A program made the position numbers and the translations under genes. Shown one piece after another: positions 5,223-23,572 of a stretch of DNA of 28,122 bases. Source of the DNA: a virus; the UHGV virus genome UHGV-1710763. The stretch is one strand, 5' to 3'. The notes beneath the pieces were generated by a model. It saw only the letters and a list, made by a program, of their open reading frames with translations, was not told the DNA's origin and searched no databases. Numbering within the stretch: position 1 is the first letter of the stretch; each line of letters starts with the position of its first letter.

Positions 5223-5613
5223 AAAAACCTCTCTCTGCTTGTTCGATTTTTGCTCTTAAAACTTCACATCGTTCTATGTGATATCTGGCCTCATGCTCAT
5301 GTGTTGCCAAAGTCCTTTCAAGAACTGTTTTATAGTAACTCGCAAGCTGCTCTCTTGTCAAGGGGTGTTCTGAAATAATATCAAGGCCGCTTTCACCCAG
5401 AGTATTAAACTGCCCGTGCTCATTTACATGGTAAGTTTCAAACTTGAACAGACCGTTGTTAGCAGATTCAATAGGTGAGAGTTCAGCCAACTCAACAGTG
5501 AACATTGTGTGCACCCTATCACCAACTGTAACAATGTTACTACCAATGATTCTCACCATTGAGCCATTGCGAGTGTACTTAAAAGTTCCAAAGTCACTAG
5601 CCCAAAGTTTCAT
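5215..5613 (-). CDS. hypothetical protein (132 aa)
   Basis: ORF-track ORF. Confidence 0.5.
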   Translation of the reverse strand: MKLWASDFGTFKYTRNGSMVRIIGSNIVTVGDRVHTMFTVELAELSPIESANNGLFKFETYHVNEHGQFNTLGESGLDIISEHPLTREQLASYYKTVLERTLATHEHEARYHIERCEVLRAKIEQAERGFYE

Positions 5614-5664
5614 AGTTTTCTCCTTAGAAAATAAAAAAGGCTCCCGAAGGAGCCTATGAAGATA

Positions 5665-6129
5665 TTACTTTGGGTATACACTGTCAAGATAAATGTCAGC
5701 TTCCATTCTACGTCTGTTTTTCAGGCCGTTTGAAGTGACCTTCTGACCTTTGACTGTAACCTTGTTCCACCACTGCATAGCTTCTGCACAACCTACCTTA
5801 TTACCAGCGTTGTGGCGCTTGATAAATGTAGAGTCCTGCATAGCTGTGATACCAATGTTGTATGTTTCACTTACAAGTGCATCAAACTCGTTCTGAGAAG
5901 TTGGAACCTTGATAGCTTTGTTCACTGCTGCAACGAACTTTTCAACATCTGCGAGAAGATACTGTTCAGCTTGTTCAGCGGTAATCTTCATACCCATCTT
6001 AACAGGCTTCCCACCAATACGAATTGTCCCATACCCAATTGTGGGGATTCCAGCAGAATCTTCGTAAGCCTCAAGCTTAAGACCTTCAAAGAACTTAATA
6101 GCTTCTAATCCTTTTCTTGAGAGTTGCAT
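5665..6129 (-). CDS. phage lysozyme / endolysin, glycoside hydrolase family 24 (T4 e / lambda R type)
   Basis: Translation carries the GH24 signature FEGLKLEAYEDSAGIPTIGYG (catalytic Glu, Asp, Thr spacing); size of 154 aa is typical. Confidence 0.8.
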   Translation of the reverse strand: MQLSRKGLEAIKFFEGLKLEAYEDSAGIPTIGYGTIRIGGKPVKMGMKITAEQAEQYLLADVEKFVAAVNKAIKVPTSQNEFDALVSETYNIGITAMQDSTFIKRHNAGNKVGCAEAMQWWNKVTVKGQKVTSNGLKNRRRMEADIYLDSVYPK

Positions 6130-7262
6130 TATGCCCCTCCTACTGGGTTAACTGTAACTGTTGCCGCATTAGATGTTACAGAGCCACCTGCACCAGTAAC
6201 TACACAAGTGTAGCTTCCTGCATCAGCAGTGGTTGCACCTTCTTTGGTGTAAGTTGCAGCAGTTGCATCGAGGATGTCTTCCTCACCTTTCTTCCACTGG
6301 TAACCTGTTGCACCTGTTGCCACAACATTCAGTGTTAAAGTCTCACCTTCAGTGATTTCTTGATTGGTTGGCTGTTGAGTGACTACCGGAAGTGCGTTAA
6401 CAATAACCGTTGCAGGGCTAGAAGTGACAGAACCACCTGCACCTGTTACAACGCAAGTGTATGAACCTGCATCTGCTGGCAGAGCACCAGACTTGCTATA
6501 GGTAGCATTTGTCGCTGAAGGAATGTCAGAGCCATCTTTCTTCCATTGGTAACCAGTTGCACCAGTTGCAGTAACTGCTAAGTTGATGTTTCCACCTTCA
6601 TTAATAGTCTGGTTAGAAGGTTGCTTGGTAATCACAGGTAGTGCGTTCACAGTCACTGTTGCTGCATCTGAGGTAACACTTGTTCCACCCTCTCCAGATA
6701 CAACACAAGTGTATGAACCAGCGTCAGAAGGTGCTACTGACTGTTTTGTGTAAGTTGCAGAATTGGCACTAGGGATATCCTCACCATCCTTCTTCCACTG
6801 ATATCCAGTGGCGTTAGTTGCTAGAATGCTTAGAGTAAGTGTGCCACCCTCATTGACTGTTTGACCTGTTGGTTGCTGAGTAATTGCTGGTGGCTTAATA
6901 GCATCCTTCAACTTAGCATTCAACATTGAGAACGGCTTAACTCTTGCCAACCATTCACAGTAAATTGTGTCAACATCTTTACCATTGATGATTGCATACT
7001 GCAAATCCATGAAGAAATCAGCAGTTCTCATCTGTGCACCAACACTGTAAAGCAATTCATCACTAAATGGAACTTTGTAGTCTGGTTTGTAGTCAAACTT
7101 CTCAACTTCTGCAATATCAGCTTCAGGCCAATATGAACTATAGGTAAGTGGTAAAATAGCCTCTTGATATGTTCTAAAATCATATCTCTTACCAGCCTTT
7201 ACATTTGCAATGAAACCCTTCACAAACTCTTTGAAGTCTGGGTAAGTCTTTGCTTTAATCAT
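6129..7262 (-). CDS. protein with an N-terminal domain of unknown function plus three tandem Ig-like (I-set type) repeats
   Basis: Three ~85-aa repeats each ending in the motif DAGSYTCVV(S/T)G and containing ATGYQWKK. Confidence 0.65.
   Translation of the reverse strand: MIKAKTYPDFKEFVKGFIANVKAGKRYDFRTYQEAILPLTYSSYWPEADIAEVEKFDYKPDYKVPFSDELLYSVGAQMRTADFFMDLQYAIINGKDVDTIYCEWLARVKPFSMLNAKLKDAIKPPAITQQPTGQTVNEGGTLTLSILATNATGYQWKKDGEDIPSANSATYTKQSVAPSDAGSYTCVVSGEGGTSVTSDAATVTVNALPVITKQPSNQTINEGGNINLAVTATGATGYQWKKDGSDIPSATNATYSKSGALPADAGSYTCVVTGAGGSVTSSPATVIVNALPVVTQQPTNQEITEGETLTLNVVATGATGYQWKKGEEDILDATAATYTKEGATTADAGSYTCVVTGAGGSVTSNAATVTVNPVGGA
6140..6900 (-). repeat. three tandem ~255-bp coding repeats (Ig-like domains) inside the 6129..7262 gene
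   Basis: Near-identical DNA blocks encoding the repeated Ig-like domain. Confidence 0.6.
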
Positions 7263-7573
7263 TTCTTTTTAGCCTCTAAATGTGCGTTTAGTCTAAAATA
7301 ACCTTTGTGATGCGGAGATACATCACCAACAACAATACCTTTAACCTTATAGCCTTTACCAATTACATACTGGATATCCATAAGGAATCTTCCAAGACCA
7401 ACAATATGGAACATTGGATATAATAGATTCTCAGAATCTGGAATATTGATTTCAGGTTTGTAGGTGCGTTGTTCGCTTGTTGGTGTAATATCTTCTTCAG
7501 GCCATTTACTGAGTCTCCATGTCAAAGGTGTTGGGATAACATCATTAAGGTTGTACCTTTCACCATTTTGCAC
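7259..7573 (-). CDS. paralogue of the N-terminal domain of the Ig-repeat protein; N-terminus apparently frameshifted (possible pseudogene)
   Basis: Shares PLT..WPE.DI...YKP...LLY...F.MD.QY.I with the 6129..7262 product; track ORF starts with GTG, while an ATG at 7629 in another frame encodes MKAKSAKDF, matching MIKAKTYPDF of the paralogue. Confidence 0.5.
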   Translation of the reverse strand: MQNGERYNLNDVIPTPLTWRLSKWPEEDITPTSEQRTYKPEINIPDSENLLYPMFHIVGLGRFLMDIQYVIGKGYKVKGIVVGDVSPHHKGYFRLNAHLEAKKK

Positions 7574-7676
7574 GGAATTGATATAGGATTGTAGGAAGCA
7601 ATAAAGTCTTTTGCACTCTTAGCTTTCATTAAATATCCTTATAAATAGTTAAAGGGGCATCAGCCCCTATTCACAC

Positions 7677-8267
7677 TTAAGCTTTGGTCTTAAGTAGGTT
7701 CTTAAGTTTTTTAAGATTCATACTCTCATCAAACTTAAAACCAAATCCATTGACATAATCAATGAACTCGGATTTCTTACTGAGTGACAATGCGTAACTC
7801 ATATCAAAGTTCTTACTTGTTTCTGCGTCTGGACTAGAGTTCACATCAAATGAAATTTCTGTAGGCTCTTGCTTACTTTTCCTCATATTATCAACCAACA
7901 AACATGTATAGTTTGCTGGATAGAAGTTTACACTACCATCAACGTAGCTGTACTTATTATTATGGATAAGGTTGGAAAATACCTTAAGGAATGTTTCTGA
8001 GTCGTGGCAAACAAGTTTGAATTGGCTGCTCTCTCCAAGCGCAACTAATGAGTACGGACTTTCACTATCAAAGTCATAATTTGGATTCGATGCCGTCACT
8101 GTTACACGCATCAAGTTATTAGCAATAGTCTTCTGTTTAAAAGAATTTTGAACATAGTGAAGACCTCTATCACACTGATTGACTAGCTCTTTAAGTAGGT
8201 CATTTGCATATGGTGAATTAATTGATACAGAGCCATCACTATTGTAATTAAAACTTACTGTTAACAT
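7677..8267 (-). CDS. hypothetical protein (196 aa)
   Basis: ORF-track ORF. Confidence 0.55.
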   Translation of the reverse strand: MLTVSFNYNSDGSVSINSPYANDLLKELVNQCDRGLHYVQNSFKQKTIANNLMRVTVTASNPNYDFDSESPYSLVALGESSQFKLVCHDSETFLKVFSNLIHNNKYSYVDGSVNFYPANYTCLLVDNMRKSKQEPTEISFDVNSSPDAETSKNFDMSYALSLSKKSEFIDYVNGFGFKFDESMNLKKLKNLLKTKA

Positions 8268-8494
8268 TTTTCAGTTCTCCTGCGATTTATGATTTTGCTG
8301 CAATAGAGAAACGAAGTAAACTCACTGGAAGAAACCATTAAGTGTTGTTCACTAGATTGAGCCATTGCCCTGAAATACATTCCAGTCAAAGCATCATAGT
8401 GACTATTCTTTCCAATTGAGGTTATATAGCCATGACTCTTTGCAGTTTGATATAAATCTATAATATCTGCGATTTCTAATTGGGAACTACACAT
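8261..8494 (-). CDS. hypothetical protein (77 aa)
   Basis: ORF-track ORF. Confidence 0.45.
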   Translation of the reverse strand: MCSSQLEIADIIDLYQTAKSHGYITSIGKNSHYDALTGMYFRAMAQSSEQHLMVSSSEFTSFLYCSKIINRRRTEKC

Positions 8495-8658
8495 AGATAA
8501 TCCTCTTGTCTTCTGTAATTTTGAAAGAACAGGTACAGACCAATTTCAGAGGATGAATAGTAGATTGACTCTACCCTTTTTGATTCCTTACAGTGATTGG
8601 TATTCTTACCTTTCTTCGGTTTATTTGATTTTCTCATTAAGTCTCCTTTGTAGAACAA
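8476..8658 (-). CDS. hypothetical basic protein (60 aa), first gene of the leftward operon
   Basis: ORF-track ORF. Confidence 0.4.
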   Translation of the reverse strand: MFYKGDLMRKSNKPKKGKNTNHCKESKRVESIYYSSSEIGLYLFFQNYRRQEDYLCVVPN

Positions 8659-8736
8659 GGCAGACCTACAGCTTTAAGTAAGATGGTACAGTAATCCATA
8701 CAACAAGTCAAGAACTATTGCAAGTTAAAAAAGTTG

Positions 8737-8765
8737 TTGACAAAGTACTTGACAAGGTGTAGGCT
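8737..8765 (+). promoter_or_regulatory. candidate sigma70-like promoter (TTGACA with a weak -10) inside the conserved AAAAAGTTGTTGACA context
   Basis: TTGACA at 8737-8742; -10 candidate TAGGCT at 17-nt spacing is poor, with TATAAAT further downstream; same upstream context as the stronger promoters. Confidence 0.3.
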
Positions 8766-8818
8766 TATAAATACTTAGAAGATTACTTAAAAGGTTCCTC
8801 TAAAAAGGCTATTTAAAC

Positions 8819-8838
8819 AGATATCTTTCTGGATATCT
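8819..8838. promoter_or_regulatory. 7-bp inverted repeat AGATATC-N6-GATATCT (possible operator)
   Basis: Perfect palindrome arms read directly in the region between the divergent gene blocks. Confidence 0.3.
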
Positions 8839-8886
8839 ATCTTTTATCTTAAAAGCCTTTTAAGAGGTCTTATAAGAGGCATACCA

Positions 8887-9258
8887 ATGAAAAACAGAAC
8901 AAACAAAGGCCAGTTTAAAAAAGGCCAGTCTGGAAACCCATCTGGAAGACCCAAAGGCTCTCGTAACAAAAGTTCACTCGTAAAAGCTCAACTGACCATT
9001 GATAATTCTGCTGAGTTTGCTGCAAAGTTGTTTGAGGCGATTGTTACAAGGGACGCTGCTAAGCTTGCAGAGTTCGGGTTAAACACAGACGACGTAACCA
9101 TCAAGAGTATGATTGAGGTCGGTAAAACTATCATGACTCACTCAGCAGGTGAGATGAAAGCCATTGCAGCAGACACTAAGAAGACTCCTGATAATGGTGG
9201 TCAACAACAGACAGATAACAAACCAACGTTCTCTGCTGTAGCGACTCTTAAAAAATAA
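8887..9258 (+). CDS. hypothetical protein with N-terminal basic GNPSGRPKGSRNK motif (possible nucleic-acid binding)
   Basis: ORF-track ORF starting at an ATG; the motif resembles basic N-termini of phage DNA-binding proteins. Confidence 0.55.
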   Translation: MKNRTNKGQFKKGQSGNPSGRPKGSRNKSSLVKAQLTIDNSAEFAAKLFEAIVTRDAAKLAEFGLNTDDVTIKSMIEVGKTIMTHSAGEMKAIAADTKKTPDNGGQQQTDNKPTFSAVATLKK

Positions 9259-10920: not shown

Positions 10921-10997
10921 CTCTGTTTAGCTCAGCTTGGTAGAGCGTTCCGTTTGGGGCGGTAAGGCCGGAGGTTCAAGTCCTCCAACAGAGACCA
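10921..10997 (+). tRNA. tRNA-Pro (anticodon TGG)
   Basis: Hand-folded cloverleaf: acceptor CTCTGTT / AACAGAG, D-arm GCTC..GAGC, anticodon loop TTTGGGG, T-arm GGAGG-TTCAAGT-CCTCC, encoded CCA. Confidence 0.7.
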
Positions 10998-11004
10998 AAT
11001 TAAT

Positions 11005-11082
11005 GTTCCAGTAGACAAAATGGTAAAGTCACCACTCTTTCAAAGTGGATATCTGAGGGTTCAAATCCCTTCTGGAACGCCA
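11005..11082 (+). tRNA. tRNA-Glu (anticodon TTC)
   Basis: Acceptor GTTCCAG / CTGGAAC; anticodon stem CCACT / AGTGG with loop CTTTCAA; T-loop TTCAAAT; CCA. Confidence 0.75.
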
Positions 11083-11173
11083 GTTTTGACAGAAGACCAA
11101 TTACAGCAAACTTAATCTTATTCATCTGAAGGTAAATCGGACAAAGAAGAGATTTGGTCTGGTCATTAAGAAT

Positions 11174-11250
11174 TGCGGGTATAGAGAAAGGGCGTCTCAC
11201 ATGTCTCATTAGCATGGTATCGGCAGGTTCGACTCCTGCACCCGCCTCCA
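11174..11250 (+). tRNA. tRNA with CAT anticodon (Met, fMet or Ile-lysidine; identity unresolved)
   Basis: Anticodon stem CATGT / GCATG with loop CTCATTA; T-arm GCAGG-TTCGACT-CCTGC; acceptor has a 1:72 mismatch; CCA. Confidence 0.65.
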
Positions 11251-11334
11251 AATTTACAGAAGACCGTTTACAGCAATACTTATTAAATTTTTAGCGGAAA
11301 AAATTGAAATATACGGTCTGGTAATACTAAACAT

Positions 11335-11411
11335 GGTTAGGAAGCACATAAGGTATGTGCGGTCGCCTGTTAAGCGAATGGCACAGGGTTCGAATCCCTG
11401 ACTAACCGCCA
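11335..11411 (+). tRNA. tRNA-Asn (anticodon GTT)
   Basis: Acceptor GGTTAGG / ACTAACC; D-arm GCAC..GTGC; loop CTGTTAA; T-arm CAGGG-TTCGAAT-CCCTG; CCA. Confidence 0.75.
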
Positions 11412-11480
11412 AATTTAGGAGAGAAGCAATTGCTCACCGATTTGTAAGGTGCAAGTCCTTAGCCTGAATAGAAATTAAAT

Positions 11481-11568
11481 GTGTCGTTATCCCGTAGATG
11501 GTAGCGGTGGGGACTGTAAATCCCTTGTCATTGAGACTCGGTAGGTTCGACTCCTACACGGCACACCA
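11481..11568 (+). tRNA. tRNA-Tyr (anticodon GTA), class II with long variable arm
   Basis: Acceptor GTGTCGT / ACGGCAC; anticodon stem GGGGA / TCCCT with loop CTGTAAA; ~15-nt variable arm; T-arm GTAGG-TTCGACT-CCTAC; CCA. Confidence 0.65.
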
Positions 11569-11573
11569 ATAAA

Positions 11574-11651
11574 GGTTATGTAGTTTAATTTGGTTAAAAT
11601 ACTCCCCTGTCACGGGAGATGATGAGGGTTCAAATCCCTTCGTAACCGCCA
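11574..11651 (+). tRNA. tRNA-Asp (anticodon GTC)
   Basis: Acceptor GGTTATG / CGTAACC; anticodon stem CTCCC / GGGAG with loop CTGTCAC; T-loop TTCAAAT; CCA. Confidence 0.75.
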
Positions 11652-11834
11652 ATTTTGAGAGGGCTATTTAGCCCCTCCCTTAAAGGGTTCTTACGAGTAT
11701 CCTTTAAAGGAGCAGAAGACCAAATACAGCAAGTTACTTAAAATTTCAAGCCAATTTAATTTTGAAAAATTTAAAACTTGGTCTGGCTCAACAAATTTAC
11801 AGAAGACCGTTTACAGCAAAACTTAAACAATCTA

Positions 11835-11907
11835 TTTCTCCGGTAAAGAAAAGGCGAAGGTTCGATTCCTTCACTCGGCAGATGTCGAGTTGGTGTAATG
11901 GTAGCAC
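11835..11907 (+). ncRNA. circularly permuted tRNA-like element (anticodon-like hairpin, T-arm, acceptor stem closed by an AGAT loop, D-arm); candidate Y-RNA-like tRNA mimic
   Basis: Order read directly: TTTCT-CCGGTAA-AGAAA, GAAGG-TTCGATT-CCTTC, ACTCGGC-AGAT-GTCGAGT (7 bp), TG, GTG-TAATGGTAG-CAC; no 5' acceptor partner upstream and no 3' half downstream. Confidence 0.35.
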
Positions 11908-11932
11908 TTAAGATGATAAACAACGGTCTGGT

Positions 11933-12076
11933 AATTATCTTTGTAGATAAGTTATTAAGCTTACCTGTGAGTATGCGACCACAAAGGGTGAAAGGGTAAA
12001 TTCTAGATTTAAACCTAACAAGGCACATCGCTACAGACCTTAAGCAAGTCTGGGTAGCTTATCTACAAAGATAATT
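11933..12076. repeat. perfect 18-19-bp inverted repeat flanking a ~106-bp segment (long hairpin, possible RNase III site or miniature element)
   Basis: ATTATCTTTGTAGATAAG at 11934-11951 is the exact reverse complement of CTTATCTACAAAGATAAT at 12058-12075. Confidence 0.6.
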
Positions 12077-12080
12077 TAAT

Positions 12081-12156
12081 GGAAGTGTAGCAGAATGGTG
12101 ATGCGGCAGACTTTTAATCTGACAGGCGATGGGTTCGAATCCCTCCACTTCTACCA
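12081..12156 (+). tRNA. tRNA-Lys (anticodon TTT)
   Basis: Acceptor GGAAGTG / CACTTCT; anticodon loop CTTTTAA; T-loop TTCGAAT; CCA; paralogue of the Lys(CTT) gene at 13309. Confidence 0.75.
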
Positions 12157-12161
12157 AAAAT

Positions 12162-12238
12162 GGTTCAGTCGCAGATAAGGTAATGCAAGGGTTTCATAAG
12201 CCCTATGAATGTGGGTTCGATTCCCACCTGAACCTCCA
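12162..12238 (+). tRNA. tRNA with CAT anticodon (second copy; Met / fMet / Ile2 unresolved)
   Basis: Acceptor GGTTCAG / CTGAACC perfect; anticodon stem AGGGT / GCCCT with loop TTCATAA; T-arm GTGGG-TTCGATT-CCCAC; CCA. Confidence 0.7.
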
Positions 12239-12239
12239 A

Positions 12240-12315
12240 GCTGGTATAGTTAAGAAGGTTATAACACTCCCCTGATAAGGGAACATCGGTGGTTCGATTC
12301 CACCTACCAGTACCA
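12240..12315 (+). tRNA. tRNA-Ile (anticodon GAT)
   Basis: D-arm GTTA..TAAC; anticodon loop CTGATAA; T-arm GGTGG-TTCGATT-CCACC; CCA. Confidence 0.7.
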
Positions 12316-12330
12316 ATTTCAATAAAGTTG

Positions 12331-12359
12331 TTGACATTGAGATGTGACTACTTTATAGT
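12331..12359 (+). promoter_or_regulatory. strong sigma70-like promoter inside the tRNA island (TTGACA-17-TATAGT)
   Basis: TTGACA 12331-12336, exactly 17-nt spacer, TATAGT 12354-12359, with the AATAAAGTTGTTGACA upstream context. Confidence 0.6.
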
Positions 12360-12562
12360 AACCTTAGTTTTCGTTGCGTAGCGTCTATTTTGCAAATTTA
12401 AAATAAATGCAAACGACAATGTTTTTCTGGCAGTAGCTTGATAGGCTAAACACCAGTGAGGTCTTCCAATCCCTCATCAAAGAATTTGGCGTACTAGCCC
12501 ACGGTATGATTAATAAGGTGGGCATCTTTAAGGGCTTTCTAAGAGAGTCTTTAAAGATTAAT

Positions 12563-12639
12563 GCACCCTTAGTTCAATTGGATAGAGCAACGGTCTTCTA
12601 AATCGTTAGTTACAGGTTCGAATCCTGTAGGGTGTACCA
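12563..12639 (+). tRNA. tRNA-Arg (anticodon TCT)
   Basis: Acceptor GCACCCT / AGGGTGT; D-arm GTTC..GAGC; anticodon stem ACGGT / ATCGT with loop CTTCTAA; T-arm ACAGG-TTCGAAT-CCTGT; CCA. Confidence 0.75.
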
Positions 12640-12780
12640 ATTAGTTAGCAGATTACTTAGACGACCTAAGCGGGTCTTCCTGTAGGGAGGTGGTCTGTAT
12701 CTCATGTTTTCCAGAACATGTAAATAATCTGAGAAGGGGCTTTACAGTGTTGAGATAATACGGTAAGCTTCGAATTATAG

Positions 12781-12867
12781 TATGGGACGATGTTAAGACT
12801 CTAAGGCATGAGCAACGGCTTCCAACACCGTTTCAAAGGGGTTCAACTCATCCGTCCCATGCCAAAG
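12781..12867 (+). ncRNA. unresolved tRNA-like structured element (11-bp terminal stem, 9-nt-loop hairpin with CTTCCAA, T-loop-like GGGGTTCAA, ends GCCA)
   Basis: TATGGGACGATG pairs with CATCCGTCCCATG; internal hairpin AACGG-CTTCCAACA-CCGTT; no canonical cloverleaf could be drawn. Confidence 0.3.
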
Positions 12868-12877
12868 TCTTATTAGG

Positions 12878-12965
12878 GGTAGGTAGCGGCTAATGGTAGC
12901 CAAACAGTCTTGAAAACTGTTGCCACTGTAGAGATACGGTGAGGGTTCGACTCCTTTACTTACCG
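12878..12965 (+). tRNA. tRNA-Ser (anticodon TGA), class II; CCA not encoded
   Basis: Acceptor GGTAGGT / ACTTACC; anticodon stem ACAGT / ACTGT perfect with loop CTTGAAA; long variable arm; T-loop TTCGACT. Confidence 0.6.
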
Positions 12966-13223
12966 CCTAATAAGATTTTACACCGTCCATGCTTGCTCGC
13001 ATTTTCGGTTTATCCCTCGTGTATTGTCGTACACACTGATAAAGCACCTAGTAGGTGTCACGGAGAAGAGATAATATCAAGCTCTCCAAAGGTTCTAGCC
13101 ACCGGATTAAACAAGACTATGCAAAGACCTTTTTAGGTCTTTTTAGAGGGCTTCTAAGGTTATTACAGCTTGTTGTGGAACCTTGTTGCTTAGGTTCTTA
13201 GAAGTTCTCTAAAAAGATTTAAT

Positions 13224-13301
13224 GGGAGATTGACGGTAATTGGTAAACCTACCATCCTTAGAAGTTGGTGTTTGAGGGTTCGAATCCCTTGTCTCCTACC
13301 A
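13224..13301 (+). tRNA. tRNA, anticodon provisionally TAG (Leu) on a class-I-length scaffold; identity uncertain
   Basis: Acceptor GGGAGAT / GTCTCCT (two G-U pairs); loop CTTAGAA between CCATC / GTTGG (one mismatch); T-arm GAGGG-TTCGAAT-CCCTT; CCA; D-arm irregular. Confidence 0.5.
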
Positions 13302-13308
13302 AATTAAT

Positions 13309-13384
13309 GCAGGTGTAGCAAAATGGTTATGCGGCTGACTCTTAATCAGTAAGACGATGGGTTCAATTCCCTCCACCTGTACCA
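13309..13384 (+). tRNA. tRNA-Lys (anticodon CTT)
   Basis: Acceptor GCAGGTG / CACCTGT; anticodon stem GCTGA / TCAGT with loop CTCTTAA; T-loop TTCAATT; CCA. Confidence 0.75.
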
Positions 13385-13391
13385 AACAATG

Positions 13392-13467
13392 GGGGTCATA
13401 GTTTATATGGTTAAAATTCGAGTTTTGCAAACTTGGGAACTGAGTTCAATTCTCAGTGACTCCACCA
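13392..13467 (+). tRNA. tRNA-Ala (anticodon TGC)
   Basis: Acceptor GGGGTCA / TGACTCC; anticodon stem CGAGT / ACTTG with loop TTTGCAA; T-arm CTGAG-TTCAATT-CTCAG; CCA. Confidence 0.75.
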
Positions 13468-13473
13468 ATTAGT

Positions 13474-13548
13474 GCATCCATAGTTTAAACGGGAAAATTA
13501 CAGTCTTCCAAACTGAGGTTGAGGGTTCGATTCCCTCTGGATGCTCCA
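13474..13548 (+). tRNA. tRNA-Gly (anticodon TCC)
   Basis: Acceptor GCATCCA / TGGATGC perfect; loop CTTCCAA; T-arm GAGGG-TTCGATT-CCCTC; CCA. Confidence 0.75.
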
Positions 13549-13562
13549 AATTAAGGTGTGAT

Positions 13563-13976
13563 ATGAAAATATGCAGTACTTGCAGAATACCAAAAGATGA
13601 AAGCTTATTCCATAAGAATAAGAACAAGAAAGACGGTCTTCAAAGTCAATGCAAAGATTGTGCAAGACTTCGTGATGCAAAGAGTTATCAAGCAAATGAT
13701 AAAAGGAAAGAGGCTATTAAAAGCACTCGTAACTTCAAGAGAGAGCATAACAAGACTCTAGCTAGAAGGTACAAAGCTTTATGCAAATGTCATATATGTG
13801 GTGAGAAAGAACCAGTTGCACTGGATTTACACCATACAGACCCTTCCCAGAAAGATTTGAATCCTGCATCACTTTATTCATACTCCACAAAAAGATTAAA
13901 AGATGAAATCAGAAAGTGCATTGTCTTGTGCGCTAACTGTCACAGAAAAGTACATGCTGGTATCATAAAAGTTTAA
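13563..13976 (+). CDS. HNH family endonuclease (free-standing homing-endonuclease-like gene)
   Basis: Cys pairs CKDC and CKCHIC plus an HNH core (LDLHHTD ... N ... CANCHRKVH) in the translation; sits between tRNA-Gly and tRNA-Thr. Confidence 0.7.
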   Translation: MKICSTCRIPKDESLFHKNKNKKDGLQSQCKDCARLRDAKSYQANDKRKEAIKSTRNFKREHNKTLARRYKALCKCHICGEKEPVALDLHHTDPSQKDLNPASLYSYSTKRLKDEIRKCIVLCANCHRKVHAGIIKV

Positions 13977-13977
13977 T

Positions 13978-14054
13978 GCTGCTTTCGTATAATTGGCTAT
14001 TACACATCCCTTGTAAGGATGGAAATGCAGGTTCGAGTCCTGTGAGCAGCACCA
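13978..14054 (+). tRNA. tRNA-Thr (anticodon TGT)
   Basis: Acceptor GCTGCTT / GAGCAGC; anticodon stem CATCC / GGATG perfect with loop CTTGTAA; T-loop TTCGAGT; CCA; starts 2 nt after the HNH stop codon. Confidence 0.8.
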
Positions 14055-14149
14055 ATTCAGAGGTCAAGTGAAAGACCGCTGGTGTCAACTGAAGACCGTA
14101 ACAAATTCCACGGAGTTGAGTTAGCGGCACAACTTCAGACCTCTTTCAT

Positions 14150-14224
14150 ACTCGCTTAGTTTATATGGTAAAACATCACCCTTACAAGATGAAGAGAAAG
14201 GTTCAAGCCCTTTAGTGAGTACCA
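14150..14224 (+). tRNA. tRNA-Val (anticodon TAC)
   Basis: Acceptor ACTCGCT / AGTGAGT; D-arm GTTT..AAAC; loop CTTACAA; T-arm AAAGG-TTCAAGC-CCTTT; CCA. Confidence 0.65.
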
Positions 14225-14225
14225 T

Positions 14226-14303
14226 GTTCCAGTATCCCAATTGGCAGAGGATGCAAGCTCAAACCTTGTACTAGTGACGGTTCGAATCCGTCTTGGAACA
14301 CCA
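14226..14303 (+). tRNA. tRNA with CAA anticodon (Leu-type) but only a 6-nt variable region
   Basis: Acceptor GTTCCAG / TTGGAAC; anticodon stem GCAAG / CTTGT with loop CTCAAAC; T-arm GACGG-TTCGAAT-CCGTC; A73; CCA. Confidence 0.6.
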
Positions 14304-14308
14304 ATTTT

Positions 14309-14384
14309 GCAGGATTAGTTCAAATGGATAGAGCAACAGTCTACGAAGCTGTTAATAGGGGTTCGAATCCCTTATCCTGCGCCA
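14309..14384 (+). tRNA. tRNA-Arg (anticodon ACG)
   Basis: Acceptor GCAGGAT / ATCCTGC perfect; D-arm GTTC..GAGC; anticodon stem ACAGT / GCTGT with loop CTACGAA; T-loop TTCGAAT; CCA. Confidence 0.8.
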
Positions 14385-14403
14385 ATTTAAAGAGGCTATT
14401 TAG

Positions 14404-14961
14404 ATGAGATATTTGAAGTATGCTTCATGGATTTTCTTAGCTTTGTTAGAGCCATTTGCAGCAATCTTAGCAGTTATCTTAGCACCTTTTGTAGTTCCAT
14501 TCTACAGTGAGAAGAAAGGACACTTACCTTTCGGATTCAGATGGATGGAGACATATGACAACCCAATTGATGGTGATGAAGGTCACGTTAAAAGATGGGC
14601 TAATATTAGATGGATTGGTAAACTAGGTGTCTACATGCAAAGAGTCGGATGGCTCTGGAGAAACAAAGCTTATAACTTCTCTTACCATGTATTAGGAAGA
14701 GATGTAAAAGATGTTACTAAGTGGAAAGGTAATATCAACGTAAGTTCTAACCCTGAAGATAATCAGACAGGTTATCTCCTAATGTGGAACAGCAATGCTT
14801 GGGGATTATTCGCTTTTATCCCATCAATTAAAATCTTTGGTAAACAGTTCTACTGGAGAATTTATATTGGGTGGAAGCTAAAAAGTGTTGTCCCAGAAGA
14901 AAGAGCATTCTCAAGGGAAAGAGTTATGTTGGCATTCTTTATTCATCCACTAAGAAAGTAA
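14404..14961 (+). CDS. hypothetical membrane protein (hydrophobic N-terminus, Trp-rich)
   Basis: ORF-track ORF; N-terminal hydrophobic stretch WIFLALLEPFAAILAVILAPFVV; embedded between tRNA genes. Confidence 0.55.
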   Translation: MRYLKYASWIFLALLEPFAAILAVILAPFVVPFYSEKKGHLPFGFRWMETYDNPIDGDEGHVKRWANIRWIGKLGVYMQRVGWLWRNKAYNFSYHVLGRDVKDVTKWKGNINVSSNPEDNQTGYLLMWNSNAWGLFAFIPSIKIFGKQFYWRIYIGWKLKSVVPEERAFSRERVMLAFFIHPLRK

Positions 14962-14969
14962 AGATTTAA

Positions 14970-15045
14970 AGGGGATTAGTTTACAAGGTTAAAACCTCGG
15001 TCTTTGAAATCGAAGAAGTTGGTTCAATTCCAACATCCCCCGCCA
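14970..15045 (+). tRNA. tRNA-Gln (anticodon TTG)
   Basis: D-arm GTTT..AAAC; anticodon stem TCGGT / ATCGA with loop CTTTGAA; T-arm GTTGG-TTCAATT-CCAAC; weak 1:72 pair; CCA. Confidence 0.7.
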
Positions 15046-15047
15046 AT

Positions 15048-15126
15048 GCTCCATTACTCCAATTGGCAGAGAGGCCAGACTTAAAATCTGTGTTATGTAT
15101 CGGTTCGAATCCGATATGGAGTACCA
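15048..15126 (+). tRNA. tRNA with TAA anticodon (Leu-type) but only a 7-nt variable region
   Basis: Acceptor GCTCCAT / ATGGAGT; anticodon loop CTTAAAA; T-arm ATCGG-TTCGAAT-CCGAT; A73; CCA. Confidence 0.6.
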
Positions 15127-15131
15127 AATTT

Positions 15132-15207
15132 AGCGGTATAGCATAACTGGCAATGCAACAGTCTCTGAAGCTGTCTTATTAAGGTTCAAATCCTTATGCC
15201 GCTGCCA
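15132..15207 (+). tRNA. tRNA-Gln (anticodon CTG)
   Basis: Acceptor AGCGGTA / TGCCGCT; anticodon stem ACAGT / GCTGT with loop CTCTGAA; T-arm TAAGG-TTCAAAT-CCTTA; CCA. Confidence 0.7.
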
Positions 15208-15238
15208 CTTCTAAGGGTTCTTACGAGAGTCCTTAAAT

Positions 15239-15314
15239 GTGGCCTTATCATAAATGGTAATGACCCATGCTGTGAACATGGTCTATACGGGTTCAAATCC
15301 CGTAGGTCACCCCA
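15239..15314 (+). tRNA. tRNA-His (anticodon GTG)
   Basis: Acceptor GTGGCCT / AGGTCAC; D-arm TCAT..ATGA; anticodon stem CCATG / CATGG perfect with loop CTGTGAA; C73 discriminator; CCA. Confidence 0.75.
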
Positions 15315-15321
15315 ATTTATA

Positions 15322-15396
15322 GTCCAAGTAGCTTATATGGTTAAAGCGCGTGTCTGAAAAACATGAGAAGAGGGTTCAAATCCCACTGGACTACCA
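15322..15396 (+). tRNA. tRNA-Phe (anticodon GAA); acceptor register ambiguous
   Basis: D-arm GCTT..AAGC; anticodon stem CGTGT / ACATG with loop CTGAAAA; T-loop TTCAAAT; ends ACCA. Confidence 0.65.
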
Positions 15397-15412
15397 ATTT
15401 CAAAGGTGCTTA

Positions 15413-16147
15413 ATGAAAGAGATGACAGAACAAGGTAAGGAGATTTTTAATCTCTTAAAAACCGGTAAAGGGTTTTCTAACCCACTTATTACTGGTGCAG
15501 CAGTTCTCGGTGGAACCGTAGCTGCCTCTACATCACTTGTAAGCTCTATTAGCTCTGTAACAGACCCTACAACGAAGGAGAAACTTGTTGCTGCTGGACT
15601 TACAACAGTTCTTCTAAACAGCTTTACAACAAGCCTGACAAGCACTACAGCAACTACTAAGACCCTAACAGACTACGGTCAAAAGTCTATTGATGAGTTT
15701 TCATCACGTATGCAGGTGGCAAAGGGATATTCCAATGTTATGGGTGCAGCAGGAGAACAAGTTGGTTGTACACCATTCAGTGGTATTATGGGTGTTGCTA
15801 CAGAGTATGGTCAGCAAGCTATTGACATGATTAACAGCACACTAGACAGTGTTAACGGTGTGTTAAGTGACTTACAAGATGCTATTGACAAGGGTCTTGA
15901 TACTGTTTCTGATTTAGCTAACCAAGCTGTAAGTAAGATTAATGAAGGTATTTCAAAGATTACAGCTTATGCAGATGAAGTTGTGCAGATGATTGAAGAA
16001 GAAGCTGCCCTTATTGCAGAGTACCTTAAAACGAATATCAATGGGTTCTTAGCAGGTATCTTACCAGACTGGTTTGATGATGCCTGTAAAACTGGTGTAA
16101 TTGACACTATTGCAACACCAGAAATGAAGAACGCATTACAGAAATAA
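15413..16147 (+). CDS. hypothetical Ser/Thr-rich protein; start moved downstream of the track ORF (15350) to the first ATG clear of tRNA-Phe
   Basis: Track ORF 15350..16147 overlaps the tRNA at 15322-15396; the in-frame ATG at 15413 has AAAGGTG upstream. Confidence 0.55.
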   Translation: MKEMTEQGKEIFNLLKTGKGFSNPLITGAAVLGGTVAASTSLVSSISSVTDPTTKEKLVAAGLTTVLLNSFTTSLTSTTATTKTLTDYGQKSIDEFSSRMQVAKGYSNVMGAAGEQVGCTPFSGIMGVATEYGQQAIDMINSTLDSVNGVLSDLQDAIDKGLDTVSDLANQAVSKINEGISKITAYADEVVQMIEEEAALIAEYLKTNINGFLAGILPDWFDDACKTGVIDTIATPEMKNALQK

Positions 16148-16148
16148 T

Positions 16149-16241
16149 GGAAGATTAACCCTAAAAGGTAAGGGAGCAGTTTGCTAAACTGCCAGTAGCT
16201 GAGAAATCGGTGTACCAGTTCAAGTCTGGTATCTTCCTCCA
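16149..16241 (+). tRNA. tRNA-Ser (anticodon GCT), class II with long variable arm
   Basis: Acceptor GGAAGAT / ATCTTCC perfect; anticodon stem GCAGT / ACTGC perfect with loop TTGCTAA; ~20-nt variable arm; T-arm ACCAG-TTCAAGT-CTGGT; CCA. Confidence 0.8.
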
Positions 16242-16245
16242 ATTT

Positions 16246-16321
16246 GAATCCGTGACAGAAATGGCTATGTGCCTGTCTGCAAAACAGGTTTATAAGGGTT
16301 CGAGTCCCTTCGGATTCTCCA
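16246..16321 (+). tRNA. tRNA-Cys (anticodon GCA)
   Basis: Acceptor GAATCCG / CGGATTC perfect; anticodon stem CCTGT / ACAGG perfect with loop CTGCAAA; T-arm AAGGG-TTCGAGT-CCCTT; CCA. Confidence 0.8.
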
Positions 16322-16744: not shown

Positions 16745-16765
16745 TTCTATTTGCGGAGGCGCTTA

Positions 16766-18367
16766 ATGGACTTAAATGCTGTTAAGCAGAAGCGAGTGGA
16801 AGATGTTAGGAAAGTCCTAGCTGGAGAGTTGGGGCTTTCTGATGAAGTAAAAGAAATTATCAAATCATTCGGTAAAGACCCCTCTAAATTCCTTCCAACT
16901 CAAATTCTGACTTTATTAAGATACACACCAGACCAAGTTAGACTTATCTTCAAATTGATGACTGATAAGAACTATGTAGCCCCTCAGCCGGGTTCTCAAG
17001 AGGTCTTTTTAAATACTAATGCTGACTTGGTTCTCTATGGTGGTGCTGCTGGTGCTGGTAAAACTGCTGCATTGTTAATGGACTCTTTAAGATTTATTGA
17101 AGACCCTAACTATAATGCTGTATATTTCCGTCGAAATACAACACAGCTACAAGGTGGTTTATGGCCTGCTGCAAAGAAACTATTTGGTAAGTTTGGTGGG
17201 ATTCCTCACGAGCAGAAAATGACTATCACATTCCCTTCTGGGGCAACTATCAAGTTTACCTACCTAGAACTTGAAAAGCACGCTGAAGGTCATCAGGGTA
17301 TTGAATACTCAGCTATTTACTTTGACGAAGGTACACACTTCTCTGCTTCACAGATTTCATACCTACAAACCCGTCTACGTTCTGGTGCTGAAGGCGATTC
17401 ATACATGAAGATTTCCATGAACCCAGACAGAGACCATTTTATTTATGATTGGGTAGAACCATTCTTAGATGAAGAAGGTTATCCAGACCCTGAAAAGTGT
17501 GGTCGTATTCGTTGGTATGTAATGAACGATGGCGTGATGGTTTCTGATTGGGAGAGAGACAAGATTCTTGAAATGTTCCCTCTTGAGATTCCTCAAACAT
17601 ACACCTTCATCTCTGGTACGATTGATGATAACCCAATTCTTGACTTCTTAGAACCAAAGTATCGCGGTAAGCTTGAAACCAACACTCCTGTAAACGTTGC
17701 AAGACTTCGTTTCGGTAACTGGAAGGCTCGTGCAGAAGGTTCAAACTATTGGCAAAGACAATGGTGTGAGATTGTTGATTCACTCCCAGAAGATGTATTT
17801 GATGTTAGAGCATGGGACTTAGCAGCAACTTTACCATCTGAGATTAACCCTAATCCAGACTGGACAGCAGGTGTTAAGATGGGTAAATCTAAAAAAGACG
17901 GTTGCTATTATATCATTGATGTAGTAAGATTTAGAGATAGACCCTCTGGAGTCGAAACACAAATTAATTTGACTGCTGAAAGTGACGGTAAGCGAACTGG
18001 TATTTTTATCCCTCAAGACCCAGGCGCTGCTGGTAAATCCTACGCAACATCCCTCATCAGGAAACTTGCCGAGAAAGGCTATCGTGCAAGAGCTAAACCA
18101 ACAAATAAAGATAAAGTTACCCGCTTTGCGGGATTTTCTGCTGCTTCTGAAGCTGGACTTGTAAAAGTCTTGAGAGGTAGTTGGAATGAAGCTTACTTTC
18201 AAGAGCTTGAAGGCTTTTGTGGTGACGGCAAAACTAAAGATGACCAAGTGGATGCTACCAGTGATGCTTTCAACAGTCTGAACGAAGTTAAATTATTCAA
18301 GCCACCATCAATGGGTGCTCACACAGACTTAGTGAGAGGAAACCCATATGAGGGGCTTAGACGTTGA
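16766..18367 (+). CDS. terminase large subunit
   Basis: Walker A motif GGAAGAGKT in LVLYGGAAGAGKTAALL; ~530 aa; track ORF starts at a TTG at 16751, so the ATG at 16766 with GGAGG 5 nt upstream is preferred. Confidence 0.8.
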   Translation: MDLNAVKQKRVEDVRKVLAGELGLSDEVKEIIKSFGKDPSKFLPTQILTLLRYTPDQVRLIFKLMTDKNYVAPQPGSQEVFLNTNADLVLYGGAAGAGKTAALLMDSLRFIEDPNYNAVYFRRNTTQLQGGLWPAAKKLFGKFGGIPHEQKMTITFPSGATIKFTYLELEKHAEGHQGIEYSAIYFDEGTHFSASQISYLQTRLRSGAEGDSYMKISMNPDRDHFIYDWVEPFLDEEGYPDPEKCGRIRWYVMNDGVMVSDWERDKILEMFPLEIPQTYTFISGTIDDNPILDFLEPKYRGKLETNTPVNVARLRFGNWKARAEGSNYWQRQWCEIVDSLPEDVFDVRAWDLAATLPSEINPNPDWTAGVKMGKSKKDGCYYIIDVVRFRDRPSGVETQINLTAESDGKRTGIFIPQDPGAAGKSYATSLIRKLAEKGYRARAKPTNKDKVTRFAGFSAASEAGLVKVLRGSWNEAYFQELEGFCGDGKTKDDQVDATSDAFNSLNEVKLFKPPSMGAHTDLVRGNPYEGLRR

Positions 18368-18383
18368 TAGCTAGGTGAGAAGA

Positions 18384-19850
18384 ATGGCAGATATTACAGA
18401 AACACAAGAAAGCTTACCACCATTTAGAATGGGTGAAGTAGGTTCTTTGGGTCTGAAGGTTAAGAATGGAATAATCTATGAAGAACCTCGTCAGGCACTA
18501 AGGTTTCCTGAAAGTATTAAAACTTTCCAATTAATGATGCGTGACCCTGCTGTAGCAGCATCTGTAAATATTATTAAGATGTTTGTCAGAAAAGTCAACT
18601 GGAGATTCGTACCTCCAAAGGGAAAAGAGCAAGACCCTAAAATGCTTGAAAGAGCAGACTTCTTTAATTCTTTAATGGATGACATGGAGCATGATTGGGC
18701 AGATTTTATTAATTCTGTAATGTCATTCTGCACTTATGGGTTCTGTGTTAATGAAAAGGTTTATAAGAAGCGTCAGGGTAAGAAAGGAAAGTACCAGTCT
18801 AAATTTGATGATGGTCTAATTGGATGGGCTAAATTACCAATCAGAAACCAATCAACACTTGATAAGTGGTATTTTGACGAAGACTTTAGAAAAGTTACTG
18901 GTGTTAGACAGAATCTGAGAAATGTTTCACATATTGCTGGAGCAATTAATCTTGGAGAAAGACCACTAACAAGAAAACTCCCACGAGCTAAATTCATGCT
19001 GTTTAAGTATGACGATGAATATGGAAACCCAGAAGGTCGTTCACCATTACTTAATGCCTATGTGCCGTGGAAGTATAAAGTTCAGATTGAAGAGTACGAA
19101 GCAGTCGGTGTTTCAAGAGACTTGGTAGGTATGCCAAAAATTGGTTTACCACCAGATTATCTGGATGAAAATGCAGAACCTGAAAAGAAAGCTTTCGTAC
19201 AATACTGCAAAACTGTTGTTAACGATATGATTGCTAATGATAGAGCAGGTTTAATCTGGCCTAGATATATCGACCCAGATACTAAAGAGGATATTTTCGA
19301 GTTCTCATTAGTTTCTAGACAGGGTGCTAAAGCATACGATACAGGTTCTATTATTGACAGATATTCCAAGCAGATTATGATGGCATTTATGTCAGATGTT
19401 CTTGCTATGGGTCAGTCAAAATATGGTTCATTCTCTCTTGCAGACTCTAAGACAAGCTTACTAGCGATGTCAGTAGATATTCTGCTGAAGCAAATTAAGA
19501 ACGTAATTAACCGTGATTTAGTTGCACAGACTTATGCTCTTAATATGTGGGACGATGAAGAACATGTACAAATCACATATGATGATATCGAAACTCCAGA
19601 CCTTGAAGCAATTGGTTCTTATATCCAGAAGACTGTTGCAGTAGGTGCTTTGGAAGTTGACAAAGAGCTATCTAACAAGCTTAGAGAGCATATTGGTCTT
19701 CCTCCTGCTGATGAGTCTCAGCCAGTATCTGAAAAGCTTTCTCCAAATAGCCAAAGCCGTTCAGGAGATGGTTACAAGACCGCTGGAGAAGGTACTGCAA
19801 AGACACCTTCAGCGAAAGACCCAAGCACAGCAAATAAGGCAAATAAATAA
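18384..19850 (+). CDS. portal protein
   Basis: ~490 aa gene directly after the terminase, as in most tailed phages; track ORF starts at GTG 18375, ATG at 18384 preferred; acidic tail with basic C-terminus. Confidence 0.65.
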   Translation: MADITETQESLPPFRMGEVGSLGLKVKNGIIYEEPRQALRFPESIKTFQLMMRDPAVAASVNIIKMFVRKVNWRFVPPKGKEQDPKMLERADFFNSLMDDMEHDWADFINSVMSFCTYGFCVNEKVYKKRQGKKGKYQSKFDDGLIGWAKLPIRNQSTLDKWYFDEDFRKVTGVRQNLRNVSHIAGAINLGERPLTRKLPRAKFMLFKYDDEYGNPEGRSPLLNAYVPWKYKVQIEEYEAVGVSRDLVGMPKIGLPPDYLDENAEPEKKAFVQYCKTVVNDMIANDRAGLIWPRYIDPDTKEDIFEFSLVSRQGAKAYDTGSIIDRYSKQIMMAFMSDVLAMGQSKYGSFSLADSKTSLLAMSVDILLKQIKNVINRDLVAQTYALNMWDDEEHVQITYDDIETPDLEAIGSYIQKTVAVGALEVDKELSNKLREHIGLPPADESQPVSEKLSPNSQSRSGDGYKTAGEGTAKTPSAKDPSTANKANK

Positions 19851-22462: not shown

Positions 22463-23572
22463 ATGTTGACTAATTCTGAAAAAAGCAGATTTTTCCTTGC
22501 TGACCTGACTGGTGAAGTCCAGTCTATCCCAAATACTTATGGGTATATTTCCAACTTAGGTCTGTTCCGTTCAGCACCAATCACCCAAACTACTTTCCTT
22601 ATGGACTTGACTGATTGGGATGTTAGCTTGCTTGATGCGGTAGACCGTGATAGCCGTAAAGCAGAGACTAGCGCACCTGAGCGTGTTCGTCAAATCAGCT
22701 TCCCAATGATGTACTTCAAAGAAGTTGAAAGCATTACTCCTGATGAGATTCAGGGTGTACGTCAGCCAGGCACTGCAAACGAACTGACTACTGAAGCTGT
22801 AGTACGTGCTAAGAAGCTGATGAAGATTCGTACCAAGTTCGATATTACTCGTGAGTTCTTGTTTATGCAAGCTCTGAAGGGTAAAGTTGTTGATGCTCGT
22901 GGTACTCTGTATGCTGACCTGTACAAGCAGTTCGACGTTGAGAAGAAGACTGTTTACTTCGACCTTGACAACCCTAATGCTGACATTGACGCTTCTATTG
23001 AAGAACTGCGTATGCACATGGAAGACGAAGCTAAGACTGGCACTGTAATCAACGGTGAAGAAATTCACGTAGTTGTTGACCGTGTATTCTTCAGCAAACT
23101 GGTTAAGCATCCTAAGATTCGTGACGCTTATCTTGCACAGCAGACTCCACTGGCTTGGCAACAGATTACTGGTTCTCTGAGAACTGGTGGTACTGACGGC
23201 GTTCAGGCTCATATGAACACCTTCTACTACGGTGGTGTTAAGTTTGTCCAGTACAACGGTAAGTTCAAAGACAAGCGTGGTAAAGTTCACACTCTGGTTA
23301 GCATTGATGGTGTTACTCAGGATGGAACTGTAGGTGTAGGACATGCTTTCCCTAACGTTTCTATGCTGGGTGAAGCAAACAACATCTTCGAAGTGGCATA
23401 TGGCCCATGCCCTAAGATGGGTTATGCGAATACACTTGGTCAGGAACTATACGTATTCGAATACGAAAAAGACCGTGACGAAGGTATCGACTTTGAAGCT
23501 CACTCTTACATGCTGCCATACTGTACTCGTCCTCAGTTGCTGGTAGATGTTCGTTCTGACGCTAAAGACTAA
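22463..23572 (+). CDS. major capsid protein (lambda gpE-like family)
   Basis: 369 aa, the size and position expected of a capsid gene after protease and decoration genes; codon usage looks highly expressed; family from recalled resemblance to gpE. Confidence 0.65.
   Translation: MLTNSEKSRFFLADLTGEVQSIPNTYGYISNLGLFRSAPITQTTFLMDLTDWDVSLLDAVDRDSRKAETSAPERVRQISFPMMYFKEVESITPDEIQGVRQPGTANELTTEAVVRAKKLMKIRTKFDITREFLFMQALKGKVVDARGTLYADLYKQFDVEKKTVYFDLDNPNADIDASIEELRMHMEDEAKTGTVINGEEIHVVVDRVFFSKLVKHPKIRDAYLAQQTPLAWQQITGSLRTGGTDGVQAHMNTFYYGGVKFVQYNGKFKDKRGKVHTLVSIDGVTQDGTVGVGHAFPNVSMLGEANNIFEVAYGPCPKMGYANTLGQELYVFEYEKDRDEGIDFEAHSYMLPYCTRPQLLVDVRSDAKD

Follow-up and report, generated by a model that had tools for sequence, protein, structure and literature searches.

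The window analysed here is a stretch of 28,122 nucleotides from the virus genome UHGV-1710763 and carries, on its minus strand, a compact block of three genes for a stand-alone capsid-binding domain (CapBD) paralog, a putative hexamer-centre capsid decoration protein (Hex-Dec) and an endolysin. The region from 5600 to 8300 shared 99.0% identity with Escherichia phage Andreotti and 95-98% with many Felixounavirus genomes, and 251 Ounavirinae-type records matched it; judged by these matches, the window is a Felixounavirus. The features of the block and of the structural module are listed below.

5638..5655, minus strand: strong terminator-like hairpin with a T-run behind it, at the end of the paralog, Hex-Dec and endolysin block; a terminator is annotated at this position in AYO145A
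5665..6129, minus strand: endolysin (Phage_lysozyme; Pfam PF00959, E=9e-41)
6129..7262, minus strand: coding sequence of the putative Hex-Dec, a Hoc-like hexamer-centre capsid decoration protein of 377 aa (open reading frame list; PHROG 3995; PDB 9ncf_S and 9c2d_S)
6144..6392, minus strand: Ig-like repeat 3, aa 291-373, corresponding to the fourth, terminal Ig of Bas63 Hex-Dec (Pfam, motifs, AlphaFold2)
6393..6641, minus strand: Ig-like repeat 2, aa 208-290 (best stretches Ig_2 aa 209-288 and I-set aa 209-282; motifs; AlphaFold2)
6642..6893, minus strand: Ig-like repeat 1, aa 124-207 (best stretch Pfam Ig_3 aa 124-189; motifs; pLDDT >90)
6894..7262, minus strand: N-terminal CapBD, aa 1-123 (gapless alignment to the modelled Bas63 and Sf14 CapBD)
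7259..7629, minus strand: stand-alone CapBD paralog of the Felix O1 gp37 / AYO145A gp42 family (phrog_4463), normally 123 aa, frameshifted in the window
7653..7668, minus strand: short GC hairpin AGGGGC-TGAT-GCCCCT, flanked by the gp38-like gene and the paralog (sequence; AYO145A terminator annotation)
16751-18367, plus strand: large terminase, the start of the structural module
18375-19850, plus strand: portal, structural module
20694-22040, plus strand: prohead protease, structural module
22052-22429, plus strand: beta-tulip decoration protein (Dec), structural module
22463..23572, plus strand: major capsid protein, the putative binding partner of Hex-Dec (PDB 9ncf_A, E=5e-245; 9c2d_A, E=1e-234; PHROG 29)

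The Hex-Dec reading frame starts with ATG, and the coordinates given for it in the initial annotation agreed exactly with this minus-strand frame. Its stop codon overlaps the endolysin start by 1 nt (TAATG) and the paralog stop overlaps its own start by 4 nt (ATGA); these overlaps support translational coupling of the three genes. The hairpin at 7653..7668 was missed by the terminator scan because its T-tail is weak. No sigma-70 promoter was found between this hairpin and the paralog start, and the scan returned fewer promoter-like sites (7) than shuffled sequence (9.4).

The gene product consists of a 123-aa N-terminal module followed by three tandem Ig-like repeats, which together make up the C-terminal 250 aa. 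The initial annotation had read these as I-set-type domains, and the profile searches bore this out. Ig_3 (PF13927) scored 110.1 bits against a cut-off of 30, Ig_2 scored 93 bits against 27 and I-set (PF07679) scored 86.3 bits against 23.7, each with three matched stretches. The Big_2 family that had been suggested alongside I-set did not hold up: neither Big_2 (PF02368) nor PKD gave a significant Pfam match, Big_2 gave none at E <=0.1, and a Big_7 match stayed below threshold (19.7 vs 24.1 bits). Both motifs that had been pointed out are present in every repeat, DAGSYTCVV at aa 180, 264 and 347, and YQWKK, preceded each time by the residues ATG, at aa 154, 238 and 321. Describing the repeats as near-identical was too strong, since their pairwise identity is 66-70% in protein; in DNA it is 71-72%. 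Tandem Repeats Finder reported no long-period DNA array, only two 9-nt micro-repeats. A low-complexity or DNA tandem-repeat artefact, the concern raised at the outset, was thus ruled out, the units being about 72% identical in DNA and scoring as true Ig domains. They are diverged domain repeats.

Structure prediction led to the same fold. The AlphaFold2 (AF2) model, built on a 15-sequence alignment, had a mean pLDDT of 86 and was all-beta, with pLDDT >90, throughout aa 124-373; the N-terminal module was modelled with helices at residues 7-22 and 80-92 and strands at 95-104 and 112-120. The top Foldseek matches in the PDB were tandem I-set proteins, namely LRIG1, Robo1/2 and titin I67-I69, with E values from about 1e-18 to 6e-21 and a TMt of 0.61 for titin I67-I69. 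The conserved C-strand Trp and the D-x-G-x-Y-x-C motif occur in all three repeats. The only Cys of each repeat is the F-strand one in the Y-x-C motif, and therefore the canonical disulfide between B-strand and F-strand cannot form. The intradomain disulfide is missing from many I-set and phage Ig-like domains, and the single-Cys repeats do not exclude I-set membership.

The protein has structurally characterized counterparts among the capsid decoration proteins of related phages. In phmmer searches it matched PDB 9ncf_S ("Immunoglobulin-like domain protein", 460 aa) with E=2e-293 and 9c2d_S / 9c3a ("Tail protein", 372 aa) with E=8e-169, and it matched PHROG 3995 over aa 1-292 with E=2e-208. 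The chain 9ncf_S is the Hex-Dec of phage Bas63 (PMC12609058) and 9c2d_S is gp20 of Shigella phage Sf14 (PMC11821841). Residues 1-123 aligned without gaps to both chains and were about 97% identical to 9ncf_S. In Bas63 and Sf14 these proteins are monomers at the centres of hexamers in T=9 capsids, where they occupy only the pentamer-proximal (quasi-3-fold, facet-edge) hexamers, and their Ig-like domains were too flexible to be resolved in the cryo-EM maps (PMC12609058; PMC11821841). The initial guess that such Ig-like domains decorate virions was correct; it assigned the protein no function, which cryo-EM of close relatives supplies.

The CapBD of Sf14 is anchored by R79 and R107, which bind D221 of three capsid protein subunits (PMC11821841). 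Both arginines, seen in its sequence and in the gapless alignment, are kept in the window protein. The capsid protein encoded in the window shares about 99% identity with its Bas63 counterpart and aligned without gaps through residue 221, and D221 is kept as well; both sides of the interface are therefore conserved in the window. The gene is very probably a Felixounavirus Hex-Dec, an ortholog of Bas63 Hex-Dec, Sf14 gp20 and Felix O1 gp36, and its product a Hoc-like head decoration; no finding spoke against this identification. Members of the Ounavirinae Hex-Dec / Sf14 gp20 family (phrog_3995) carry one to four C-terminal Ig-like domains after the CapBD; the window protein has three by Pfam and AF2, and every feature tested places it in that family.

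A capsid protein of this kind could mainly serve as mechanical cement rather than in adhesion or environment sensing. Capsids are stabilised by many decoration proteins, and T=9 capsids are often decorated (PMC11821841). However, Hex-Dec is a monomer held by few salt bridges at 60 of the 80 hexamer centres and does not bridge capsomers, and the beta-tulip Dec lattice already covers the quasi-3-fold sites. Both decoration proteins are retained on empty Sf14 capsids (PMC11821841), and the Ig number varies from one to four among relatives, as expected of an exposed accessory fibre. We consider reinforcement an improbable main role for Hex-Dec.

The names under which the family is stored point to the tail. 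PHROG 3995 is labelled 'tail protein', GenBank records read 'putative tail protein' or 'major tail protein', and the Ig region matches Ig-bearing major tail proteins (phrog_158, phrog_853; Vibrio phages), as if the Ig domains decorated the tail tube or sheath. Those matches, however, span the Ig repeats only. Two independent cryo-EM studies placed the N-terminal domain of near-identical orthologs at the centres of capsid hexamers (PMC12609058; PMC11821841), and the Bas63 paper calls the 'tail protein' label an annotation error (PMC12609058). Assignment to the tail is very improbable and is effectively refuted by the Bas63 and Sf14 maps.

About 9.5 kb and a switch of strand separate Hex-Dec from the terminase and head genes, and an island of 26 tRNAs occupies 10921-16321. 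The initial annotation considered the setting beside the lysozyme unusual; the setting is real but not specific to the window, being conserved across Ounavirinae and already published (PMC3185647; PMC12609058). The gene order gp38-like gene, paralog, Hex-Dec, endolysin is common to AYO145A, Andreotti and FO1a. Felix O1 gene 36, the "tail protein" gene, was remarked to lie far from the morphogenesis genes (Whichard et al., 2010; PMC3185647), and the Bas63 Hex-Dec gene is over 10 kb away from the structural module (PMC12609058). The Felix O1 gene numbering used here was confirmed in FO1a. In CsCl-purified Felix O1 virions, gp36 was detected by mass spectrometry with 44% coverage (PMC3185647). 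By RT-PCR, Felix O1 ORFs 36 and 37 belonged to the late class peaking at 60 min, as did ORFs 51, 53, 63, 64, 72, 73, 76, and 77, and lysin ORF 35 peaked at 25 min (PMC3185647). The proposal that the operon is an early one is contradicted by this 60-min peak, which ORFs 36 and 37 share with morphogenesis genes. A non-structural lysis or early function for Hex-Dec, such as a cell-wall-binding partner of the adjacent lysozyme, would suit the coupling to the endolysin and the distance and strand switch from the terminase and head genes, but is scarcely credible given the ortholog in purified Felix O1 virions with its late peak against 25 min for the lysin (PMC3185647), the orthologs observed on capsids (PMC12609058; PMC11821841) and the lack of any match to lysis-related families in Pfam or PHROG.

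Among the closest known systems, the Hex-Dec of Bas63 (Escherichia phage JohannRWettstein, PDB 9NCF chain S, Sci Adv 2025; PMC12609058) shares genus, gene position, type of Ig repeat and interface arginines with the window and differs in having four Ig domains and 460 aa rather than three and 377 aa. Sf14 gp20 (PDB 9C2D / 9C3A chain S, Commun Biol 2025) has three Ig domains and an N-terminal CapBD like the window protein and was also found by virion mass spectrometry (PMC11821841); it comes from another genus, Mooglevirus, and its Ig domains have diverged further (about 60-70% identical, as estimated by eye). Felix O1 gp36 is encoded by the orthologous gene, which adjoins those for lysin gp35 and paralog gp37 as in the window, but its 31.6 kDa would correspond to two Ig domains, and it was first mislabelled as a major tail protein.

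[quoted passage not shown] The CapBD of Hex-Dec is topologically distinct from that of Hoc and has no sequence homology to it (PMC12609058). PHROG 'Hoc-like' matches begin at aa 120 or later, covering the Ig repeats and missing the CapBD core, and no T4-type Hoc chain was found among the best 60 of 118 PDB matches. Membership in the T4 Hoc family was rejected on the domain order and the missing CapBD match; Hex-Dec is a Hoc analog, not a member of the Hoc family. [quoted passage not shown] Its Ig domain matched window aa 131-207 with E=3e-12; pb10 differs in having a single Ig and an unrelated capsid-binding domain, with no match to Hex-Dec outside the Ig region.

The number of Ig domains ranges from one to four across the genus (PMC12609058). 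A second phmmer alignment paired window aa 200-376 with 9ncf_S residues 283-459, nearly identical over the last repeat, and the window's Ig1, Ig2, and Ig3 correspond to Ig1, Ig2, and Ig4 of Bas63. As aligned, the two proteins differ by one whole Ig domain removed or added in register. A protein homology search based on the CapBD returned about 47 candidates, almost all of them 210-aa forms with one Ig. The single Ig of these forms is mosaic, with stretches resembling different repeats of the window protein. Its first third looks like Ig1 or Ig3, its middle third like any one of the three, and its last third like Ig3 in 37 of 39 sequences. As read from short segments, these mosaics fit repeated in-register deletions between repeats with differing breakpoints. 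The CapBD search gave no distant relatives; those appeared by tblastn only, for example gene 38 of Erwinia phage phiEa21-4. This gene lies directly between the gp38-like gene and the endolysin and encodes a CapBD with one Ig, annotated as a "conserved structural protein". The phiEa21-4 ortholog is annotated as Big_2-like, and the Ig subtype differs between genera.

The initial annotation described the N-terminal module as duplicated, which holds in the sense of a tandem gene paralog directly upstream of Hex-Dec and does not hold within aa 1-123. The frameshift-corrected paralog had 43 identities in 121 positions in an end-to-end alignment with Hex-Dec aa 1-119 (z=25 against shuffles) and matched 9ncf_S with E=2.8e-7. 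Within aa 1-123, no internal repeat was detected by Smith-Waterman comparison (z<0 against shuffles at every split tested), and hhalign of half-profiles gave a probability of <=0.2%. Pseudo-C2 lobes L1 and L2 have been described for the Bas63 CapBD (PMC12609058); such pseudo-symmetry is visible in structure only, if at all. An AF2 model of a 97%-identical paralog family member was of moderate quality (pLDDT 66, pTM 0.68) and had the same order of helices and strands as the CapBD. Foldseek matched this model to 9ncf_S (E=3e-5, TM 0.66) and 9c2d_S (E=1.4e-4, TM 0.68), and no other PDB match fell below E=0.6.

In the window the paralog lacks one T of a TTTT run (plus-strand A-run at 7603-7605) compared with AYO145A and Andreotti, which carry the extra T and an intact 123-aa reading frame. 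The window frame that starts with the ATG at 7629 runs into a stop after 35 codons, and the longest intact paralog frame is 7259..7573, with a GTG start and 104 aa. The corrected protein was 100% identical to AYO145A gp42. None of 148 matching phage records shared the window's 75-nt version, and the best 15 of the 148 each aligned over 76 nt, one base beyond the window query. A programmed frameshift was rejected on the grounds that no record shares the window version and that the relatives' reading frames are intact. Either the homopolymer was misread in sequencing or the mutation is very recent.

Elsewhere the paralog is well maintained. Intact 123-aa copies are AYO145A gp42, Andreotti gp99, and gp37 of Felix O1 and FO1a, and in Felixounavirus, Mooglevirus and Suspvirus the protein keeps a length of 120-124 aa; phiEa21-4 lacks it. 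Pairwise dN/dS values were 0-0.15, on few substitutions, and the gene appears to be under purifying selection. The anchoring arginines are lost in every aligned paralog, with G in place of R79 and Q or H in place of R107. The paralog is not among the reported virion proteins of Felix O1 (PMC3185647) or VpaE1, nor in Table 1 of the Sf14 study, and its locus tags are not mentioned in the Sf14 supplementary files (PMC11821841). It is missing from the Bas63 and Sf14 cryo-EM models and is not discussed in the papers on them, and the word 'paralog' does not occur in the Bas63 paper (PMC12609058). One doubtful possibility is that it is a working late protein that, rather than being stably incorporated into virions, tunes the placement of Hex-Dec. 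It might transiently cap hexamer centres on proheads, it might fill the 20 true-3-fold hexamers left free by Hex-Dec, or it might compete with the CapBD or serve as its chaperone.

For Hex-Dec itself, the orthology, the Ig fold and the interface residues of both partners found in the window underlie the best-supported scheme, in which virion location and docking mode are those established in close relatives by cryo-EM and mass spectrometry. Hex-Dec would be made late, from the coupled paralog, Hex-Dec and endolysin block that lies on the strand opposite to the structural module. Its CapBD (N-terminal 118-123 residues), a compact alpha/beta domain, would fit the central depression of hexamers, and as a monomer it would dock at the centres of the 60 pentamer-proximal hexamers of the T=9 capsid, with R79 and R107 forming salt bridges to capsid protein residue D221. 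The three I-set-type domains, in an arrangement on the head taken from prediction, would then extend as a flexible, exposed fibre of about 250 residues. Judging from T4 Hoc, its analog, this fibre most likely binds glycans, bacterial surfaces, mucus or other virions, weakly and reversibly, and Hex-Dec would be expected to be non-essential. An adhesion role for the Hex-Dec fibre was proposed by the Bas63 authors (PMC12609058).

Hex-Dec is already known as a protein, its CapBD having been solved twice by cryo-EM and its odd gene position having been published, and the paralog is the only lead from this locus that is even modestly new. It poses a small puzzle, a second capsid-binding domain retained without the fibre and without the anchoring arginines. 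If the paralog is functional, the window phage would be a natural frameshift mutant of it, unless the missing T is a sequencing error. The three-Ig allele of the window is a further example of Ig domains being gained or lost in register. The practical value lies in correct annotation, as most database records still name the product a tail protein, and Hoc-like fibres attract applied interest in phage display and in the mucus adherence of therapeutic phages.

Upstream of the gene for Hex-Dec, the Hoc-like capsid decoration protein of the window, lies a second gene for a capsid-binding domain (CapBD) that carries no Ig repeats:

7259-7629, minus strand: paralog, stand-alone CapBD, frameshifted.

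Members of its family, phrog_4463, are 120-124 amino acids long; conservation of the family extends across Felixounavirus, Mooglevirus and Suspvirus, and it evolves under purifying selection. Erwinia phage phiEa21-4 is without the paralog. Structural modeling predicted a CapBD fold for the paralog, and both capsid-anchoring arginines are missing from it. The paralog was absent from the reported virion proteomes of Felix O1, VpaE1 and Sf14 and from the cryo-EM models of Bas63 and Sf14. Sequence comparison with AYO145A and Andreotti revealed that a single T is absent from a T-run in the window's copy (7603-7605, plus strand), which causes the frameshift; with the frameshift corrected, the protein was 100% identical to AYO145A gp42. 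None of 148 related phage records had the window's 75-nt version of this site. The missing T reflects either an error in sequencing or a knockout private to this phage.

The surroundings of this block include the following features:

8500-8890: divergent intergenic region; the leftward block ends near 8494 and rightward genes begin at 8887
10921-16321, plus strand: cluster of 26 tRNA genes with ORFs in between
13563-13976: HNH endonuclease ORF in the tRNA cluster
14404-14961: conserved ORF with no assigned function in the tRNA cluster
15350-16147: second conserved ORF with no assigned function in the tRNA cluster
22052-22429, plus strand: 125-amino-acid ORF, beta-tulip decoration protein, matching phrog_4146 (labeled 'tail protease')

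The divergent region is the counterpart of the gene 40/41 divergence point of Felix O1, where a sigma-70-like promoter, P41, has been proposed; a promoter scan of 8500-8890 detected only weak promoter-like matches. The tRNA island stands between the Hex-Dec/lysin block and the structural module. The 'tail protease' label on the 22052-22429 ORF would be another inherited mis-annotation. Among database records, the 147-kb GU169904.1 ('Staphylococcus phage SA1') contains this Felix O1-type region with about 86% protein identity; the assembly behind the record is probably chimeric or contaminated.

The number of Ig domains in Hex-Dec varies. Comparison of the one-Ig proteins from the homolog search (P0001-P0043) with Ig1-Ig3 of the window showed that 210-amino-acid, one-Ig variants are common in metagenomes and that the one Ig domain each carries is pieced together as a mosaic from Ig1, Ig2 and Ig3, the last third being Ig3-like in 37 of the 39 one-Ig sequences. 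These mosaic patterns suggest that one-Ig variants arose through repeated in-register deletions with differing breakpoints.

The Ig repeats of the window also strongly matched the Aureispira grappling-hook protein GhpA (PDB 9flp_A; E=1e-80, 13 stretches), indicating that a bacterial surface filament, the setting of GhpA, employs the same type of Ig repeat as Hex-Dec.
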